Of a stretch of 64,000 bases of DNA, positions 3,675 to 7,679 are shown piece by piece (the stretch's first letter is position 1; each line of letters starts with the position of its first letter). Source of the DNA: Escherichia phage VEc20; the sequence record MN022785.1. The stretch is one strand, 5' to 3'. The position numbers and the translations under genes are program-made. The notes under the pieces are model-generated. The model did not search any database. It saw only the letters and a program-made list of their open reading frames with translations, and had not been told where the DNA came from.

Positions 3675-3840
3675 TTGTACGAAACGCCGGGATTCGAACC
3701 CGGTTATTAAGTAGTTGACGCTACTCAATATTTTTAAAAGGCCATATCTCGACCATATCCGAACGTTCCGTCAAAAACGCTACTCGGCTTACGGCAAAGA
3801 TATTTCCTCGAATCGATAATTCGGTGCGCCGTTTCTGCTG
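3675..3840 (-). ncRNA. tRNA-like stable RNA (T4 species 1/2-like); boundaries approximate
   Basis: minus-strand T-arm CCGGG-TTCGAAT-CCCGG followed by acceptor-like CGTTTCG; complementary GAAACG about 150 nt upstream; no ORF. Confidence 0.35.
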
Positions 3841-3934
3841 TGATAGTAAAGAGCCAGAACACAGTAAAACTGTGGGAGGAAACTATACTCCAGGGAACAT
3901 CAGTCCGACGACTTACCGGTAGCGACCCGGTTTC

Positions 3935-4285
3935 TTAATATTCTTTTAAAGAATCAATATATTCACGGCGTTTACGCCACAAATCAATTGCTTCATACGC
4001 GGATTCAGCATTTCGAATTAGCCGGCATTTATGTAAAGACTTATGATTTTGATATTGTGTAGATAACGGAATTGTATCTAAAAGGTCTTTACGATCAAAA
4101 TATTCGTAACCATCTAAACCAAATGAACGATTTTTGAGAAATTGCCAATGACCATATTCGTTTTCGACATAAACATAATCTGCATGCTGATAAAGCAAAT
4201 TAATTACACGTTCAGAAATAACAGTATCATTATGATTAAAATAGAATGTTAAATCATGAACTACTAAATAAACATTACCTTTCAT
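3935..4285 (-). CDS. hypothetical protein (116 aa) embedded between tRNA-Arg and the stable RNA
   Basis: ORF with GAGGAAAAT RBS directly before ATG; no recognisable motif. Confidence 0.6.
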   Translation of the reverse strand: MKGNVYLVVHDLTFYFNHNDTVISERVINLLYQHADYVYVENEYGHWQFLKNRSFGLDGYEYFDRKDLLDTIPLSTQYQNHKSLHKCRLIRNAESAYEAIDLWRKRREYIDSLKEY

Positions 4286-4303
4286 ATTTTCCTCACTTAT
4301 AAT

Positions 4304-4379
4304 TGGTCGAGGCAGTAGGGATCGAACCTACGACCTAGGACTTAGAAGGTCCTTGCTCTTCCTTCTGAGCTATGCCCCG
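4304..4379 (-). tRNA. tRNA-Arg (anticodon TCT)
   Basis: hand-folded cloverleaf: acceptor CGGGGCA/TGCCTCG, anticodon loop CTTCTAA, T-arm GTAGG-TTCGATC-CCTAC, CCA encoded. Confidence 0.85.
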
Positions 4380-4383
4380 TAAT

Positions 4384-4459
4384 TGGGGTGACCGATGGGA
4401 GTCGAACCCATGACTACGAGAATCACAATCTCGAGTTCTACCAACTGAACTACGGCCAC
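4384..4459 (-). tRNA. tRNA-His (anticodon GTG)
   Basis: acceptor GTGGCCG/CGGTCAC, anticodon stem CGAGA/TCTCG loop TTGTGAT, T-arm ATGGG-TTCGACT-CCCAT, CCA encoded; no encoded G-1. Confidence 0.7.
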
Positions 4460-4573
4460 ATTAATACCTACTCCAACAATCAAGATGTCTTCACACGAAA
4501 TTAAGAGAAGAGTGATCAGTTCAACCCCTATAATCGCGTCAAGTAGATATTAATGTGACAGTTGTCACAAATT

Positions 4574-4648
4574 TGGCGGACGTGATAGGATTCGAACCTA
4601 TAACCAATCGCTTAACAGGCGATCGCTCTGCCATTGAGCTACACATCC
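4574..4648 (-). tRNA. tRNA-Asn (anticodon GTT)
   Basis: acceptor GGATGTG/CACGTCC, anticodon stem ATCGC/GCGAT loop CTGTTAA, T-arm ATAGG-TTCGAAT-CCTAT, CCA encoded. Confidence 0.8.
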
Positions 4649-4652
4649 AAAT

Positions 4653-4739
4653 TGGTGGGGAGTGGTGGAGTCGAACCACCCGAGTCGCAATGACAATGAA
4701 TTTACAGTCCACACCGCTACATCTACGGGATAACTCCCC
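4653..4739 (-). tRNA. tRNA-Tyr (anticodon GTA), class II with long variable arm; D-arm fold uncertain
   Basis: acceptor GGGGAGT/ACTCCCC perfect, T-arm GGTGG-TTCGACT-CCACC, anticodon loop CTGTAAA with G-U-containing stem, 87 nt. Confidence 0.55.
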
Positions 4740-4748
4740 AAATTAATT

Positions 4749-4823
4749 TGGTGGCCCTGGGTGGAATTGAACCACCATCTGGCGATTATGAGTCGCTTGC
4801 TTGAACCTTCCAGCTACAGGGCC
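4749..4823 (-). tRNA. tRNA with anticodon CAT (Met-type; probably the T4-like lysidine-modified tRNA-Ile)
   Basis: acceptor GGCCCTG/CAGGGCC, anticodon loop CTCATAA, T-arm GGTGG-TTCAATT-CCACC, CCA encoded. Confidence 0.8.
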
Positions 4824-4824
4824 T

Positions 4825-4900
4825 TGGTGCTGATTGACGGAATCGAACCGCCGACCTTCTCATTACAAGTGAGTTGCTCTACCTACTGAGCTAAATCAGC
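4825..4900 (-). tRNA. tRNA-Thr (anticodon TGT)
   Basis: acceptor GCTGATT/AATCAGC, D-arm GCTC-AGTAGGTA-GAGC, anticodon loop CTTGTAA, T-arm GGCGG-TTCGATT-CCGTC. Confidence 0.85.
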
Positions 4901-4905
4901 AAAAC

Positions 4906-4995
4906 TGGCGGAGGCGATAGGATTTGAACCTATGAGTCGCCGGAGCGACTGCCGGTTTTCAAGACCGGTGCATTAAACCACTCTGCCACGCCTCC
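4906..4995 (-). tRNA. tRNA-Ser (anticodon TGA), class II
   Basis: acceptor GGAGGCG/CGCCTCC, anticodon stem CCGGT/ACCGG loop CTTGAAA, long variable arm, T-arm ATAGG-TTCAAAT-CCTAT. Confidence 0.85.
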
Positions 4996-4997
4996 AG

Positions 4998-5071
4998 TCT
5001 CCGTGGCAGGATTTGAACCTACGACATTCTGCTCCCAAAGCAGACGCTCTACCAAACTGAGCTACACGGAG
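4998..5071 (-). tRNA. tRNA-Pro (anticodon TGG); CCA not encoded
   Basis: acceptor CTCCGTG/CACGGAG, anticodon stem TCTGC/GCAGA loop TTTGGGA, T-arm GTAGG-TTCAAAT-CCTGC. Confidence 0.8.
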
Positions 5072-5081
5072 TAAATTAAAT

Positions 5082-5155
<74 letters not shown>

Positions 5156-5160
5156 AAATT

Positions 5161-5247
5161 TGGTGCGAGAAGTGGGACTCGAACCCACAAGGAAATCATT
5201 CCGCAGCATTTTAAGTGCTGTGCCTTTACCAATTTGACCATTCTCGC
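5161..5247 (-). tRNA. tRNA-Leu (anticodon TAA), class II
   Basis: acceptor GCGAGAA/TTCTCGC, anticodon stem CAGCA/TGCTG loop CTTAAAA, T-arm GTGGG-TTCGAGT-CCCAC, 87 nt. Confidence 0.85.
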
Positions 5248-5248
5248 G

Positions 5249-5321
5249 CTGGGAATAAAGGACTCGAACCTTTGCATCTAGCAGTCAAAGTGCTATGCCT
5301 TACCAACTTGGCTAATTCCCA
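5249..5321 (-). tRNA. tRNA-Gln (anticodon TTG); CCA not encoded
   Basis: acceptor TGGGAAT/ATTCCCA (U1-A72), anticodon stem TAGCA/TGCTA loop CTTTGAC, T-arm AAAGG-TTCGAGT-CCTTT. Confidence 0.8.
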
Positions 5322-5390
5322 ATTATTAACAAAGGCTCTCTAACAAGAACCCTTGATGATAGAGGGTATTAATCAGTGCGGTATGAGTTA

Positions 5391-5416
5391 ATAATAACAA
5401 ATAATTCTTAAAGCAT
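5391..5416 (-). promoter_or_regulatory. candidate T4 middle-type promoter (MotA box ATGCTTTA, 12-nt spacer, -10 TATTAT) upstream of the tRNA array
   Basis: minus-strand TATGCTTTAAGAATTATTTGTTATTAT about 65 nt upstream of tRNA-Gln 5' end. Confidence 0.35.
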
Positions 5417-5418
5417 AT

Positions 5419-5706
5419 TTACCATTTATGATAATACGTATTTACGATACATTCAAGACCCAAAGGATTCTTGAAAATATTATATTCAAGAGGACCTTTT
5501 TCCGTTTCAATAAAGAAATCAAAGTTAACTGTGTTAAATTTACGGTCTTCCTTCACTAATTTAACTTGAGAAGATGAACGGTCAATGTAAACCTTTTCAA
5601 CTTCAAAACAGGTTAAAATGCCATAATCATCAATCAAGGCTTTAGCTGCTTCTTGATCATATTTATATCCATTTTCAATGGATGATACTTTAGCATAAAG
5701 AATCAT
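5419..5706 (-). CDS. hypothetical protein (95 aa)
   Basis: ORF track; start overlaps stop of upstream ORF (coupled); no recognisable motif, no capsid-targeting leader. Confidence 0.55.
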   Translation of the reverse strand: MILYAKVSSIENGYKYDQEAAKALIDDYGILTCFEVEKVYIDRSSSQVKLVKEDRKFNTVNFDFFIETEKGPLEYNIFKNPLGLECIVNTYYHKW

Positions 5707-5708
5707 TA

Positions 5709-6107
5709 TCAGCCTTCATCAACAATAGTATGAGTATTGGCATTTACGATTTGCCACCAGTCAAAGCGATTAGAACCCATCGGTTTGTTTTCATTTTCTT
5801 TGATAATGTCACGGAGTTCATCTTCAGAGAATGCTTTAGCGATTAAATCGGTATACCCACCACGTGGATAATAATTATCACCTGCAAACAAAAGGAAATT
5901 TACCTTCCCGGAAGGAACATATGCTTCCTTAGGATACTTGTTTCCTGCGTGGTCAACCACTTCAATATAACGGTAAGGAATATCGGTTCTTTCAACCCAT
6001 TGCCATGCCGCCGCAGGGGAATCGAAAGCATCTACACCTAAACGATTATCTTCATCTTTAGACGGATTATTTTCGTAATCCGCATATACATAATATTCAA
6101 CGTTCAT
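5709..6107 (-). CDS. hypothetical protein (132 aa)
   Basis: ORF track; start overlaps stop of the 61-aa ORF. Confidence 0.55.
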   Translation of the reverse strand: MNVEYYVYADYENNPSKDEDNRLGVDAFDSPAAAWQWVERTDIPYRYIEVVDHAGNKYPKEAYVPSGKVNFLLFAGDNYYPRGGYTDLIAKAFSEDELRDIIKENENKPMGSNRFDWWQIVNANTHTIVDEG

Positions 6108-6292
6108 TATTCACCTTTAGAAATTTTATCCATAACGATAGCAATTAAACCAATTAAAAATGCTACTACAAGTGAAAAAACATTTTCTGCCGTAGTCAAT
6201 AATCCGCATATAAATCCAACAAACATTGAAAAACTGAAAGCGGAAGCAGAAATTGCAATAGCAACATTTCGAATTAATTCACAACGTTTCAT
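6107..6292 (-). CDS. small hydrophobic (membrane) protein, 61 aa
   Basis: ORF track 6107..6433 trimmed to MKRCELIRN with GAGGAG RBS, downstream of promoter copy at 6321-6349. Confidence 0.55.
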   Translation of the reverse strand: MKRCELIRNVAIAISASAFSFSMFVGFICGLLTTAENVFSLVVAFLIGLIAIVMDKISKGE

Positions 6293-6320
6293 TTTATTCT
6301 CCTCAGTAGTTGATAGGGTA

Positions 6321-6349
6321 ATAGTATCACTACCCCATCTAAAAGTAAA
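6321..6349 (-). promoter_or_regulatory. sigma70-like early promoter candidate (-35 TTTACT, 17-nt spacer, -10 TACTAT), module copy 1
   Basis: plus-strand agtaaa ... atagta with imperfect inverted repeat GATAGGGTA/TACCCCATC flanking the -10. Confidence 0.5.
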
Positions 6350-6350
6350 C

Positions 6351-6584
6351 TTATTTTTTACGAAAAATTGATTTATTTTCTGCTGCCCATTTTTCAATAA
6401 CTGCAGCAGGACCAGTAACAACAATTTTATCACCGTAATCTTCTGCGGCGAGTTGACCGAAATTATCTAATGCATCACGAAGAACTCCATGAGGCATTTC
6501 ACCCATTTTATCTTTCTTGCCGGTGTAAATAAACTCAACTTTTACATCAGAAGATTCAGCGATAAACTCTTTGAAAGTTTTCAT
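6351..6584 (-). CDS. internal-protein-like small protein with capsid-targeting leader MKTFKEFIAE (77 aa)
   Basis: N-terminus matches T4 IP leader pattern with I-A-E cleavage-type site; ORF-track start 6596 is an alternative in-frame ATG. Confidence 0.6.
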   Translation of the reverse strand: MKTFKEFIAESSDVKVEFIYTGKKDKMGEMPHGVLRDALDNFGQLAAEDYGDKIVVTGPAAVIEKWAAENKSIFRKK

Positions 6585-6621
6585 TTTAGTTTCCATTCGA
6601 TTGTTTTGTTTTGATAGGGTA

Positions 6622-6650
6622 ATAGTATCACAACTAAAACCCTATGTAAA
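6622..6650 (-). promoter_or_regulatory. sigma70-like early promoter candidate (-35 TTTACA, 17-nt spacer, -10 TACTAT), module copy 2
   Basis: plus-strand tgtaaa ... atagta; inverted repeat ATAGGGT/ACCCTAT. Confidence 0.5.
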
Positions 6651-6663
6651 CAACTTTGTGAAA

Positions 6664-6921
6664 TTATTTTAAATCTTCTAATCGTTTCTTCATCTTAGAA
6701 CCATTTTTAGCAATTTCTCCTGCATCGGAGCATAATGCTAAAAGTGCTTTAACTTTCGTTTGGTCTCCTTTAAAAGATGAAGGATCTACTGCAGCAGCAA
6801 GTTCTTTAATACGAGAGAAAAGACGCTCAGCTTCAGCTAAAGCCATTCCAAGCTTTACTTCCATACCGTGGGAAGATTCAGTGATAGTAGTTTTTGCAGC
6901 AAACTCTTTGAAAGTTTTCAT
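6664..6921 (-). CDS. internal-protein-like small protein with leader MKTFKEFAAKTTITE (85 aa)
   Basis: AGGAAAATAAAA RBS; N-terminus paralogous to 6351..6584, mature part unrelated. Confidence 0.65.
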   Translation of the reverse strand: MKTFKEFAAKTTITESSHGMEVKLGMALAEAERLFSRIKELAAAVDPSSFKGDQTKVKALLALCSDAGEIAKNGSKMKKRLEDLK

Positions 6922-6952
6922 TTTTATTTTCCTAATTAATTTTGATGAGGTA

Positions 6953-6981
6953 ATAGTATCACTACCTCATCAGTATGTAAA
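6953..6981 (-). promoter_or_regulatory. sigma70-like early promoter candidate (-35 TTTACA, 17-nt spacer, -10 TACTAT), module copy 3
   Basis: plus-strand tgtaaa ... atagta; perfect 9-bp inverted repeat GATGAGGTA/TACCTCATC flanking the -10. Confidence 0.5.
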
Positions 6982-6994
6982 CAACTTTGTGAAA

Positions 6995-7679
<685 letters not shown>

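Follow-up and report, generated by a model that had tools for sequence, protein, structure and literature searches.

What are the three small genes that lie between the ip genes and the tRNA cluster of Escherichia phage VEc20, and what might they do during infection? The stretch of DNA analysed here, referred to as the window, comprises 64,000 nucleotides of sequence record MN022785.1, and the genes occupy its minus strand from 6292 to 5419. An original prediction, made from the letters alone, described them as an operon of unknown function. Sequence comparison indicates that the block is almost certainly trna.4-trna.3-trna.2 of phage T4, carried here by a T4-like coliphage (Tequatrovirus). 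The operon is not new: all three genes are already known, have long been part of the T4 annotation and are uncharacterised there. The feature was recognised correctly and is an ordinary one, namely a set of early, dispensable accessory genes immediately 5' of the phage tRNA cluster. They are three of the many conserved, early and dispensable T-even genes that have no assigned function. The overall explanation developed below combines the T4 identity, an early transcript, the predicted products and a binding mechanism, and is considered probable as a whole, with some reserve.

Identity, packing and conservation

The region was matched best, at 99.6%, by DNA of Tequatrovirus records. As in T4, the trio is located between ip genes and tRNA-Gln; the order and strand of the genes, their lengths, the promoter and the sequences between the genes agree as well. 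The T4 counterparts are Trna.4 (NP_049748; UniProt P13322), Trna.3 (NP_049747; UniProt P13323) and Trna.2 (NP_049746; UniProt P13324), to which the VEc20 proteins are 100% (over 61 amino acids), 65% and 97% identical, respectively. The departure from T4 lies in trna.3, whose N-terminal domain is a different allele, of the JS98/IME08 Dhakavirus type. In VEc20, two ip genes are found upstream of the trio and 11 tRNA genes, without segB, downstream. As here, trna.4 is the leading cistron and lies between the ip gene(s) and trna.3 in T4, 101112UKE3-1, IME08 and AV110. A full-text literature search under the gene names returned a SegB paper, a DRT1 paper and supplementary tables only, with no functional study of the trio.

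The genes are packed tightly at both junctions, and each has its own ribosome-binding site (Table 1). The original prediction held that both downstream start codons overlap the preceding stop codons. This is true of the trna.4/trna.3 junction, TAATG, where one base belongs both to the stop (6109-6107) and to the start (6107-6105). At the trna.3/trna.2 junction (TGA-TA-ATG), in contrast, two nucleotides separate the true stop (5711-5709) from the ATG, and an overlap with this ATG is created only by a second in-frame TAA.

Table 1. Coordinates of the features of the locus, numbered as in the window.
Feature	Position	Strand	Description
T4-type early promoter	6321..6350	-	GTTTAC-N14-GTGATACTAT (-35, TGn, -10); start site inferred near 6314
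RBS of trna.4	6304-6299	-	GAGGAG, read from sequence
trna.4	6107..6292	-	61 aa, ATG at 6292
RBS of trna.3	6117-6111	-	AAGGTGA, read from sequence
trna.3	5709..6107	-	132 aa
RBS of trna.2	5717-5713	-	GAAGG, read from sequence
trna.2	5419..5706	-	95 aa, ATG at 5706
MotA-dependent middle promoter of tRNA cluster	5391..5417	-	MotA box ATATGCTTTA, 12-nt spacer, -10 TATTAT; start inferred 5384
11 tRNA genes	4304..5321	-	Gln, Leu, Gly, Pro, Ser, Thr, Met, Tyr, Asn, His, Arg (ARAGORN)

Comparison with relatives gave dN/dS values of about 0.02-0.35 for the trio at dS values of up to more than 1, which indicates purifying selection. The values were 0.09-0.33 for trna.4 and 0.08-0.43 in most comparisons for trna.2, which reached 0.69 against its most distant relative. 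Since dN/dS is low at such divergence, the trio cannot be regarded as chance ORFs. The distribution across related phages, which had been proposed as a check, turned out to be broad, with trna.4 present in 790 phage records, trna.3 in 762 and trna.2 in 803, against 685 for the core gene 1 (at least 60% identity). The original prediction would have been refuted by ORFs that are absent or disrupted in otherwise near-identical phages with no phenotype. Disruption without a laboratory phenotype is indeed documented; absence is not the rule, as the genes are present in about as many records as gene 1. In a T4 transposon library, 23/25, 39/40 and 16/17 TA sites of the three genes carried insertions, and all three genes were classed as 'Non-essential' (bioRxiv 2025.11.20.689424 supplement). 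When the library was challenged with RexAB, RnlAB, CBASS, DarTG1, DarTG2 or minimal medium, the trio was not among the reported significant hits (bioRxiv 2025.11.20.689424).

Promoters and the boundary with the tRNA genes

A repeated early promoter had been predicted in front of a compact three-gene early unit, and this was borne out. The promoter of trna.4 is one of three exact GTTTAC-N14-GTGATACTAT copies in the window (6321-6350, 6622-6651 and 6953-6982); the chance expectation for the pattern, in a search of the window that allows two mismatches, is 0.03 matches. The copy at 6321-6350 aligns with the T4 sequences 5' of trna.4 and ipI, and T4 early promoters of this kind have been described (PMC2988021). 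A generic sigma-70 scan listed both upstream copies and missed this one, which, with TTTACT as its first hexamer, counts 8 of 12 matches against a cut-off of 9. The early class of the unit is indicated by the T4 early-type promoter copy found here together with RNA kinetics measured in T4, where the RNA of all three genes is classed as early. Trna.2 and Trna.3 protein was likewise found early in T4, and Trna.4 was undetected by mass spectrometry (PMC9697503 supplement for RNA and protein). Judging from the T4 data, the strong promoter at 6350-6321 would give rise to a compact, probably translationally coupled message of three cistrons in the first minutes of infection of VEc20.

The arrangement resembles the PeSL-type modules of T4-type hyperplastic regions (PMC4122927) in that small variable genes (ip, trna.4) are bordered by near-identical copies of an early promoter, and in that segments the size of a gene or smaller are shuffled. 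The likeness was assessed for the promoter part. Unlike in PeSL modules, the exchange breakpoints of trna.3 fall inside the gene's coding sequence and away from the promoter copies.

The end of the unit had been placed at 5419, and this boundary had to be abandoned. The transcription unit is open at this position, and the middle promoter PtRNA, as mapped in T4, follows directly after trna.2. Between trna.2 and tRNA-Gln, the scan returned no terminator-like site; the early transcript therefore probably continues into the tRNA genes, and the tRNA cluster is likely to be its distal part. These genes would additionally be served by their own MotA-dependent middle promoter. The MotA box consensus and spacing have been described (PMC2988021), and a middle promoter just 5' of the tRNA cluster is stated in the literature (PMC2330249). 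The intergenic stretch that holds the promoter is identical to that of T4, and the T4 PtRNA start (T4 position 72593) converts to 5384 in the window, where the middle-promoter pattern has 10 matches versus 2.15 expected. Rfam supports 10 of the 11 tRNAs called by ARAGORN and, over positions 3800-7000, returned tRNAs only, with no hidden RNA. In the leader, the fold surrounding a hairpin at 5330-5355 is ordinary (z -1.47).

The three proteins and their relatives

Searches for relatives of known function were empty. Scans of Trna.4, Trna.3 and Trna.2 against Pfam and NCBIfam gave nothing significant, a PADLOC scan gave no match at E values up to 1, and the trio has no sequence match to known anti-defence or defence families. 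Searches of PDB sequences with profiles of Trna.4, Trna.3, the Trna.3 C domain and Trna.2 gave nothing below E = 1. Foldseek against viral models retrieved uncharacterised homologues only, and the Trna.2 model (pLDDT 46) was too poor to use. In PHROGs, the proteins fall solely in families annotated as 'unknown function': Trna.4 in 1692 (E 6e-35, positions 1-61 of 61), Trna.3 in 1411 (E 1.2e-55, positions 2-127 of 129) and Trna.2 in 2023 (E 9.2e-48, positions 1-95 of 95). Their homologues carry the precomputed Pfam assignments PF26870, PF26894 and PF27001, respectively. The capsid-targeting leader MKT(Y/F)(Q/K)EF is absent from the N termini of Trna.4 (MKRCELIRN), Trna.3 (MNVEYYVYA) and Trna.2 (MILYAKVSS); the two upstream ip ORFs begin with MKTFKEFAAK and METKMKTFKEFIAE. 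Three statements made in advance, that the proteins lack such a leader, lack a recognisable motif and have no known function, are thus upheld. Of the profile searches and structure predictions recommended at the same time, the former led to the PHROG families and the latter to AlphaFold2 models of Trna.3 and Trna.2, but neither led to a characterised relative.

Trna.4 had been called hydrophobic, which agrees with its GRAVY value of 1.22 and two hydrophobic stretches. Two membrane helices are predicted at about residues 9-32 and 38-54, and the 61-residue protein would form a hairpin in the inner membrane. In the alignment, the N-terminal motif MKRxExIRN and Glu36, located in a short loop, are invariant. 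Among T4-type phages, conservation of the protein is 100%, at dS values of 0.07-0.16.

Trna.3 is an acidic, soluble protein (pI 4.5) in which one small alpha/beta domain occurs twice in diverged form, as a variable N copy (residues 1-66) and as a conserved C copy (residues 68-132). The AlphaFold2 model (pLDDT 86) has the order beta-beta-alpha-beta in both halves. Alignment of the N- and C-domain profiles with hhalign gave a probability of 82% and P = 1.1e-5; the best P of 30 column shuffles was 0.021. The C copy, with motifs FLLFAGxxYYPxGGxxDL and DWWQIVN, is nearly identical to that of T4 and evolves under severe constraint (ω 0.01 at dS 1.3). The N half has 92-100% nucleotide identity to a Dhakavirus-type locus and about 55-65% to T4. 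By these identities, the N domain is a swapped cassette of Dhakavirus type, exchanged between genera, whereas its flanks remained T4-like. Between alleles of this domain ω was about 0.4, with synonymous sites near saturation, and values above 1 that would indicate positive selection were not seen.

The C domain matches 556 cluster representatives (E <=1e-3), most of them standalone phage proteins of 60-75 residues. This family of about 65 residues (YYPxGG ... WWQIVD) comprises PHROGs 17649 and 4811 and the C half of PHROG 1411, and compared with it Trna.3 has an additional, degenerate copy in front. In Salmonella phage Melville, the equivalent slot is filled by the 70-residue domain alone. Searches of Pfam and PDB revealed no known function, local Pfam model or solved structure for the family. 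A narrower alignment of the standalone domain found 45 loci in viruses, whereas 185,579 species genomes of bacteria and archaea yielded a single one. The neighbours are heterogeneous DNA-metabolism genes, among which a constant partner was not found.

Trna.2 has 95 residues, is acidic (pI 5.1) and soluble, and is predicted to have the layout beta-alpha-beta4, a low-confidence assignment at pLDDT 46. A further observation comes from a study of the defence system DRT1, in whose pull-down just two T4 proteins, Trna.2 and Inh, showed significant enrichment with wild-type over RT-dead DRT1; the Trna.2 hit was not taken further there (PMC13275509). A kinship of Trna.2 or the Trna.3 C domain with T4 Cef was considered and rejected, as hhalign gave probabilities of 0.18% (Trna.2) and 0.27% (Trna.3 C-domain profile).

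Possible roles of the trio

The accessory role proposed for the genes fits what was found: they are non-essential and early in T4, they adjoin 57B/Acb1 and ip genes, trna.3 alleles are swapped and Trna.2 was enriched with DRT1. Host takeover, superinfection exclusion and anti-defence, the forms suggested for this role in the original prediction, are hypothetical. The neighbourhood has already given Acb1 (anti-CBASS) and IPI, which share with the trio their early expression and dispensability on laboratory strains. The trio differs from 57B/Acb1 and IPI in having no sequence or fold relation to them, no capsid-targeting leader and no conditional phenotype under CBASS or the other systems tested. 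In a screen of 45 early proteins of Mosigvirus AV110, the growth-inhibitory ones were gp94, 135, 204, 208, 214 and 263; the homologues of the trio, gp245-247 by accession order, are outside this list, possibly because they were not among the 45, and by this analogy the trio is probably not growth-inhibitory.

By their sequences, the three proteins do not look like enzymes. Our tentative preference is that they are non-enzymatic, early binders that act stoichiometrically to adjust components of the host or of its defences, a reading that may well be right and as easily wrong. Through such binding they would serve as accessory or counter-defence factors whose benefit is conditional, being required on some hosts only, and the exchangeable N domain of Trna.3 would set the target specificity. 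A more specific version is speculative and rather unlikely: the domain of about 65 residues would act as a dimer, T-even Trna.3 would be a fused pseudo-dimer with a conserved half for the common job and an exchangeable half for specificity, the trio would form an unrecognised counter-defence or host-factor module, and Trna.2 would engage the DRT1 DNA adduct or the phage tRNA pathway. If this were true, Trna.3 would reveal how an uncharacterised domain found throughout phages works. The handles available for experiments are the tandem domains and orphan family of Trna.3, the swap of its N domain, and for Trna.2 its placement near tRNA or CCA-enzyme genes and the DRT1 pull-down.

The main rival to stoichiometric binding, which we regard as unlikely, is that Trna.2, perhaps with the whole block, acts on the co-transcribed phage tRNAs. 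Such a protein could take part in precursor processing, CCA-end maturation or protection from host anticodon nucleases, and it might bind nucleic acid. It was found that Trna.2 homologues, in the loci examined, always adjoin tRNA genes or the gene of a CCA-adding enzyme. In all Tevenvirinae loci examined, trna.2 precedes same-strand tRNA genes by 90-850 nt, and loci that retain just 2-3 tRNAs are no exception. The homologue in Erwinia phage Cronus sits within the tRNA cluster, 2 nt before tRNA-Lys, and in the unrelated Vequintavirinae-type phages (PVP-SE1, Klebsiella Iguana-like contigs) it is found 10-280 nt 5' of a tRNA nucleotidyltransferase gene. However, synteny is inherited within a subfamily, and the cases from Vequintavirinae belong to a single lineage, so these placements amount to only about two independent observations. 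The enrichment with DRT1 that synthesises DNA, and not with the RT-dead form, would suit a nucleic-acid binder; the acidic character of Trna.2 would not, nor does the protein resemble Cef or any RNA-binding family. Cef, annotated as a modifier of suppressor tRNAs, is a precedent for a small T4 protein in tRNA maturation and would be a functional analogue if Trna.2 had such a role, but its gene is annotated far from the tRNA cluster. Growth of the transposon mutants is normal, in minimal medium too, and tRNAs occur within 3 kb of the standalone Trna.3-type domain in just 6 of 30 diverse loci, which is unconvincing.

The function might instead reside in the membrane and be led by Trna.4, with Trna.3 and Trna.2 as unrelated passengers of the transcript. 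Trna.4 could then exclude superinfecting phages, regulate membrane potential or the time of lysis, or inhibit a protein of the envelope. The two-helix hairpin with its invariant cytoplasmic and loop residues, its complete conservation in T4-type phages and the place of its gene behind a strong early promoter are consistent with such a role, and the small early membrane proteins Imm and Sp of T4 serve exclusion. Yet Trna.4 has no sequence relation to characterised membrane proteins, insertions in its gene are tolerated, and it escaped detection in the T4 proteome, though small hydrophobic proteins are often missed; a Trna.4-led function is very unlikely in our view. It is highly improbable that Trna.2 is a liability which host DRT1 senses or uses for its activation. 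The enrichment would fit such a trigger, and the route by which DRT1 becomes activated is described as unresolved (PMC13275509). The same study, however, ties DRT1 sensitivity to Dda, reports no trna.2 escape mutants and, within its panel, finds Trna.2 conserved in no phages other than T4's four closest relatives (PMC13275509); in addition, the gene is under purifying selection in about 800 phages.

There is, finally, the notion that the trio is leader or spacer sequence of the tRNA transcript and has no function, or that the ORFs are annotation artefacts. It draws on the dispensability of the genes in T4 and on the lack of any functional assignment since their first sequencing. Strong purifying selection and the detection of the Trna.2 and Trna.3 proteins refute it and leave it with practically no probability; spurious leader ORFs are ruled out by the same two lines of evidence. 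The Shine-Dalgarno sites are intact, and conservation of the genes extends to about 760-800 genomes, other genera included.

Identity, layout and transcription of the three genes

The region between the ip genes and the tRNA cluster of VEc20 is trna.4-trna.3-trna.2 of T4, an identity that can be regarded as settled. VEc20 belongs to the T4-like coliphages. Matches to the 1051 bases spanning this region occur in 804 phage records, the closest being Tequatrovirus genomes with 99.6% identity. In the T4 reference record, these three genes are annotated under these names and are likewise flanked by ipI and tRNA-Gln. The originally predicted operon of three genes with unknown function thus exists, but its genes have long been named in the T4 annotation. 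What the original prediction overlooked is that the genes are known; its observation is otherwise correct except for one small error. Both downstream start codons were said to overlap the preceding stops. This is true once rather than twice, since the trna.4/trna.3 junction (TAATG) has a one-base overlap, whereas a two-base gap separates trna.3 from trna.2 (TGA-TA-ATG). The reported lack of a capsid-targeting leader was borne out, as the MKTFKEF-type start of the two upstream ip ORFs is missing from all three proteins.

Features of the region in VEc20 (window coordinates)
Feature	Position	Strand	Details
57B homologue	6995-7453	minus	152-aa ORF
Early promoter copies	6953-6982; 6622-6651; 6321-6350		
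Two ip-type genes	6664-6921; 6351-6596	minus	85 and 81 aa
Shine-Dalgarno of trna.4	6304-6299	minus	GAGGAG
trna.4	6107..6292	minus	61 aa; 100% protein identity to T4
Shine-Dalgarno of trna.3	6117-6111	minus	AAGGTGA
trna.3	5709..6107	minus	132 aa; 65% protein identity to T4
Shine-Dalgarno of trna.2	5717-5713	minus	GAAGG
trna.2	5419..5706	minus	95 aa; 97% protein identity to T4
Middle promoter	5417-5391	minus	MotA box ATATGCTTTA, 12 nt, TATTAT
Leader hairpin	5330-5355	minus	11 bp, three G-U pairs, loop GUUA
tRNA cluster	4304-5321	minus	11 genes
116-aa ORF	3935-4285	minus	directly downstream of tRNA-Arg

All three ORFs are genes. Against relatives with synonymous divergence of 0.1 to above 1, dN/dS was 0.09-0.33 for trna.4 and 0.02-0.35 for trna.3; for trna.2, most comparisons gave 0.08-0.43, and the one with the most distant relative gave 0.69. 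A reading of the ORFs as a non-functional leader was refuted. Using tblastn, trna.4, trna.3 and trna.2 were found in 790, 762 and 803 phage records versus 685 for core gene 1 (dNMP kinase, at least 60% identity); thus, the trio is essentially universal in T4/RB69/JS98-type phages and reaches somewhat beyond them. In T4, all three RNAs are classed as early, and the proteins Trna.2 and Trna.3 were detected early, while Trna.4 was undetected (PMC9697503 supplement). Trna.4 is very hydrophobic, as predicted (GRAVY 1.22, two hydrophobic stretches), and across genera neither its N-terminal MKRxExIRN motif nor a glutamate in the loop varies. These features would be expected of a small hairpin in the inner membrane whose two ends are cytoplasmic.

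The promoter proposed ahead of the 61-aa ORF was confirmed. The pattern GTTTAC-N14-GTGATACTAT has exactly three copies in the window, and a search allowing two mismatches found 6, where chance would give 0.03. The copies align to the T4 sequences that precede trna.4 and ipI, and their -35, TGn, -10 arrangement is that described for T4 early promoters (PMC2988021). The proposed limits of 5419-6292 fit the three genes, but the transcription unit probably runs on past 5419. There is no terminator-like site between trna.2 and tRNA-Gln. This 97-nt spacer, identical in T4, contains a textbook middle promoter by a pattern search with the published consensus (PMC2988021). T4 position 72593, mapped as the middle start PtRNA, corresponds to window position 5384, seven bases past the -10 element. 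According to PMC2330249, which cites Broida and Abelson 1985, the main product of this middle promoter is the tRNA precursor. It is likely that the early promoter yields a trna.4-trna.3-trna.2 message that continues, by presumed read-through, into the 11 tRNA genes, and that the middle promoter later produces the tRNA precursor alone.

The leader hairpin, identical in T4, ends 8 nt ahead of tRNA-Gln inside the middle-promoter leader; folding of the 116 nt around it is unremarkable (z -1.47). The cluster lacks the segB homing endonuclease, unlike that of T4, which has 8 tRNAs plus segB. Of the 11 tRNAs, Rfam at its gathering threshold recovered 10, without the ARAGORN tRNA-Tyr at 4653-4739. A 114-nt gap (4460-4573) lies between tRNA-His and tRNA-Asn, and the 116-aa ORF contains a terminator-like hairpin (3984-3961). 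At the ip locus, T4 has a single ipI, whereas VEc20 has two ip-type genes, with leaders METKMKTFKEFIAE (81 aa) and MKTFKEFAAK (85 aa), each preceded by an exact early-promoter copy; according to a preprint, phage Bas37 likewise has two genes there, one being a McrBC inhibitor.

Allele exchange and domain structure of Trna.3

What the analysis adds to these known genes is modest and concerns how Trna.3 is built from domains and where Trna.2 homologues sit. Among phages with identical Trna.4, Trna.3 is 100%, 64% or 59% identical to the VEc20 protein. In a sliding comparison, window positions 6120-5860, encoding the N domain (residues 1-66), have 92-100% nucleotide identity with a JS98-type Dhakavirus locus (L019 4599-4860) but only about 55-65% with T4. 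On either side, trna.4 and trna.2 are closer to T4 (93-100% identity) than to the Dhakavirus locus (50-75%). This is a recombination exchange of the N half, with breakpoints inside the coding sequence. Between allele classes, dN is 0.45-0.78 (ω about 0.4) for the N domain and 0.08-0.13 (ω 0.14) for the C domain (residues 68-132); within one class, ω is 0.01-0.06. Judged from these patterns, the alleles are old and individually constrained, and have passed between genera as a sub-gene cassette.

Trna.3 is acidic (pI 4.5), and its predicted structure (pLDDT 86) has a beta-beta-alpha-beta order common to both halves. Searching 1.84 billion cluster representatives with a profile gave 556 matches (E 1e-3 or better), of which nearly all were standalone 60-75-aa proteins aligned to the C-terminal half only, with the motifs FLLFAGxxYYPxGGxxD and DWWQIVD. 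The family has PHROG entries of unknown function, no model in the Pfam copy searched and no PDB relative; by the sequence pattern used, it occurs at 45 viral-contig loci but at just one locus among 185,579 bacterial and archaeal species. In hhalign, the N-terminal half matches the family in register with a probability of 82% and P 1.1e-5, and the best value among reversed, column-shuffled and unrelated controls was P 0.021. Trna.3 is therefore a tandem of one domain whose motifs were lost from the first copy. In Salmonella phage Melville, a single 70-aa domain fills the trna.3 slot.

Copy number of the domain at this locus varies between phages (L024 4374-4610; L022 4198-4389; L004 807-1019; L005 2789-3001): two Karamvirus-like contigs (175-178 kb) have an additional standalone copy just upstream of trna.3, and Erwinia phage Cronus and Melville have a standalone copy only. 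One metagenome relative (P0090, 158 aa) has an apparent N-terminal XRE-like helix-turn-helix segment, judged by eye; others have unrelated C-terminal extensions.

Context of Trna.2 and function of the trio

The accessory early functions originally suggested, such as host takeover, superinfection exclusion or anti-defence, are reasonable but unproven. We tentatively favour, at a little short of even confidence, that the trio are non-enzymatic early binders adjusting host or defence components and mattering on some hosts only; the N domain of Trna.3 would be the part setting specificity. This reading is based on early expression, laboratory dispensability together with strong conservation, and on the lack of catalytic signatures in the proteins, which are small and either acidic or of membrane type. 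All three genes were classed 'Non-essential' when T4 was saturated with transposon insertions (bioRxiv 2025.11.20.689424); challenges with RexAB, RnlAB, CBASS, DarTG1, DarTG2 and minimal medium scored other genes and none of the trio. When 45 early proteins of Mosigvirus AV110 were screened for toxicity, six proved to be inhibitors (gp94, 135, 204, 208, 214 and 263). The AV110 homologues of trna.2, trna.3 and trna.4, gp245-247 by accession order, are probably non-toxic, provided that they belonged to the set screened. The conflict-rich neighbourhood also argues for binders: besides the ip genes, it includes 57B, labelled 'RNA ligase' in the T4 record and known from the literature as Acb1, an anti-CBASS nuclease. 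So do the cassette exchange of trna.3 and a DRT1 study in which Inh and Trna.2 were the sole T4 proteins enriched with wild-type over reverse-transcriptase-dead DRT1 (PMC13275509).

The main rival, a tRNA-linked role of Trna.2, is considered rather unlikely. Trna.2 is acidic (pI 5.1) with a poor predicted structure (pLDDT 46), and its homologues adjoin tRNA genes or a tRNA nucleotidyltransferase gene. At every Tevenvirinae locus examined, same-strand tRNA genes follow trna.2 within 90-850 nt, even at loci reduced to two or three tRNAs, and in Cronus the homologue lies inside the tRNA cluster. Outside Tevenvirinae, homologues occur only in PVP-SE1-like and Klebsiella Iguana-like phages, 10-280 nt upstream of the nucleotidyltransferase gene and with no tRNA within 5 kb. 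This placement is suggestive, but it amounts to only about two independent observations, and Trna.2 has no similarity to T4 Cef, a known small tRNA-maturation factor. Two lesser rivals, that Trna.2 triggers defence and that Trna.4 leads a function at the membrane, are also less probable than the binder reading. In the Vequintavirinae-type phages PVP-SE1 and Klebsiella Iguana, the phage's own tRNA nucleotidyltransferase directly follows the Trna.2 homologue (L003 4301-5554; L006 3566-4813), with small membrane proteins and a hydrolase further downstream.
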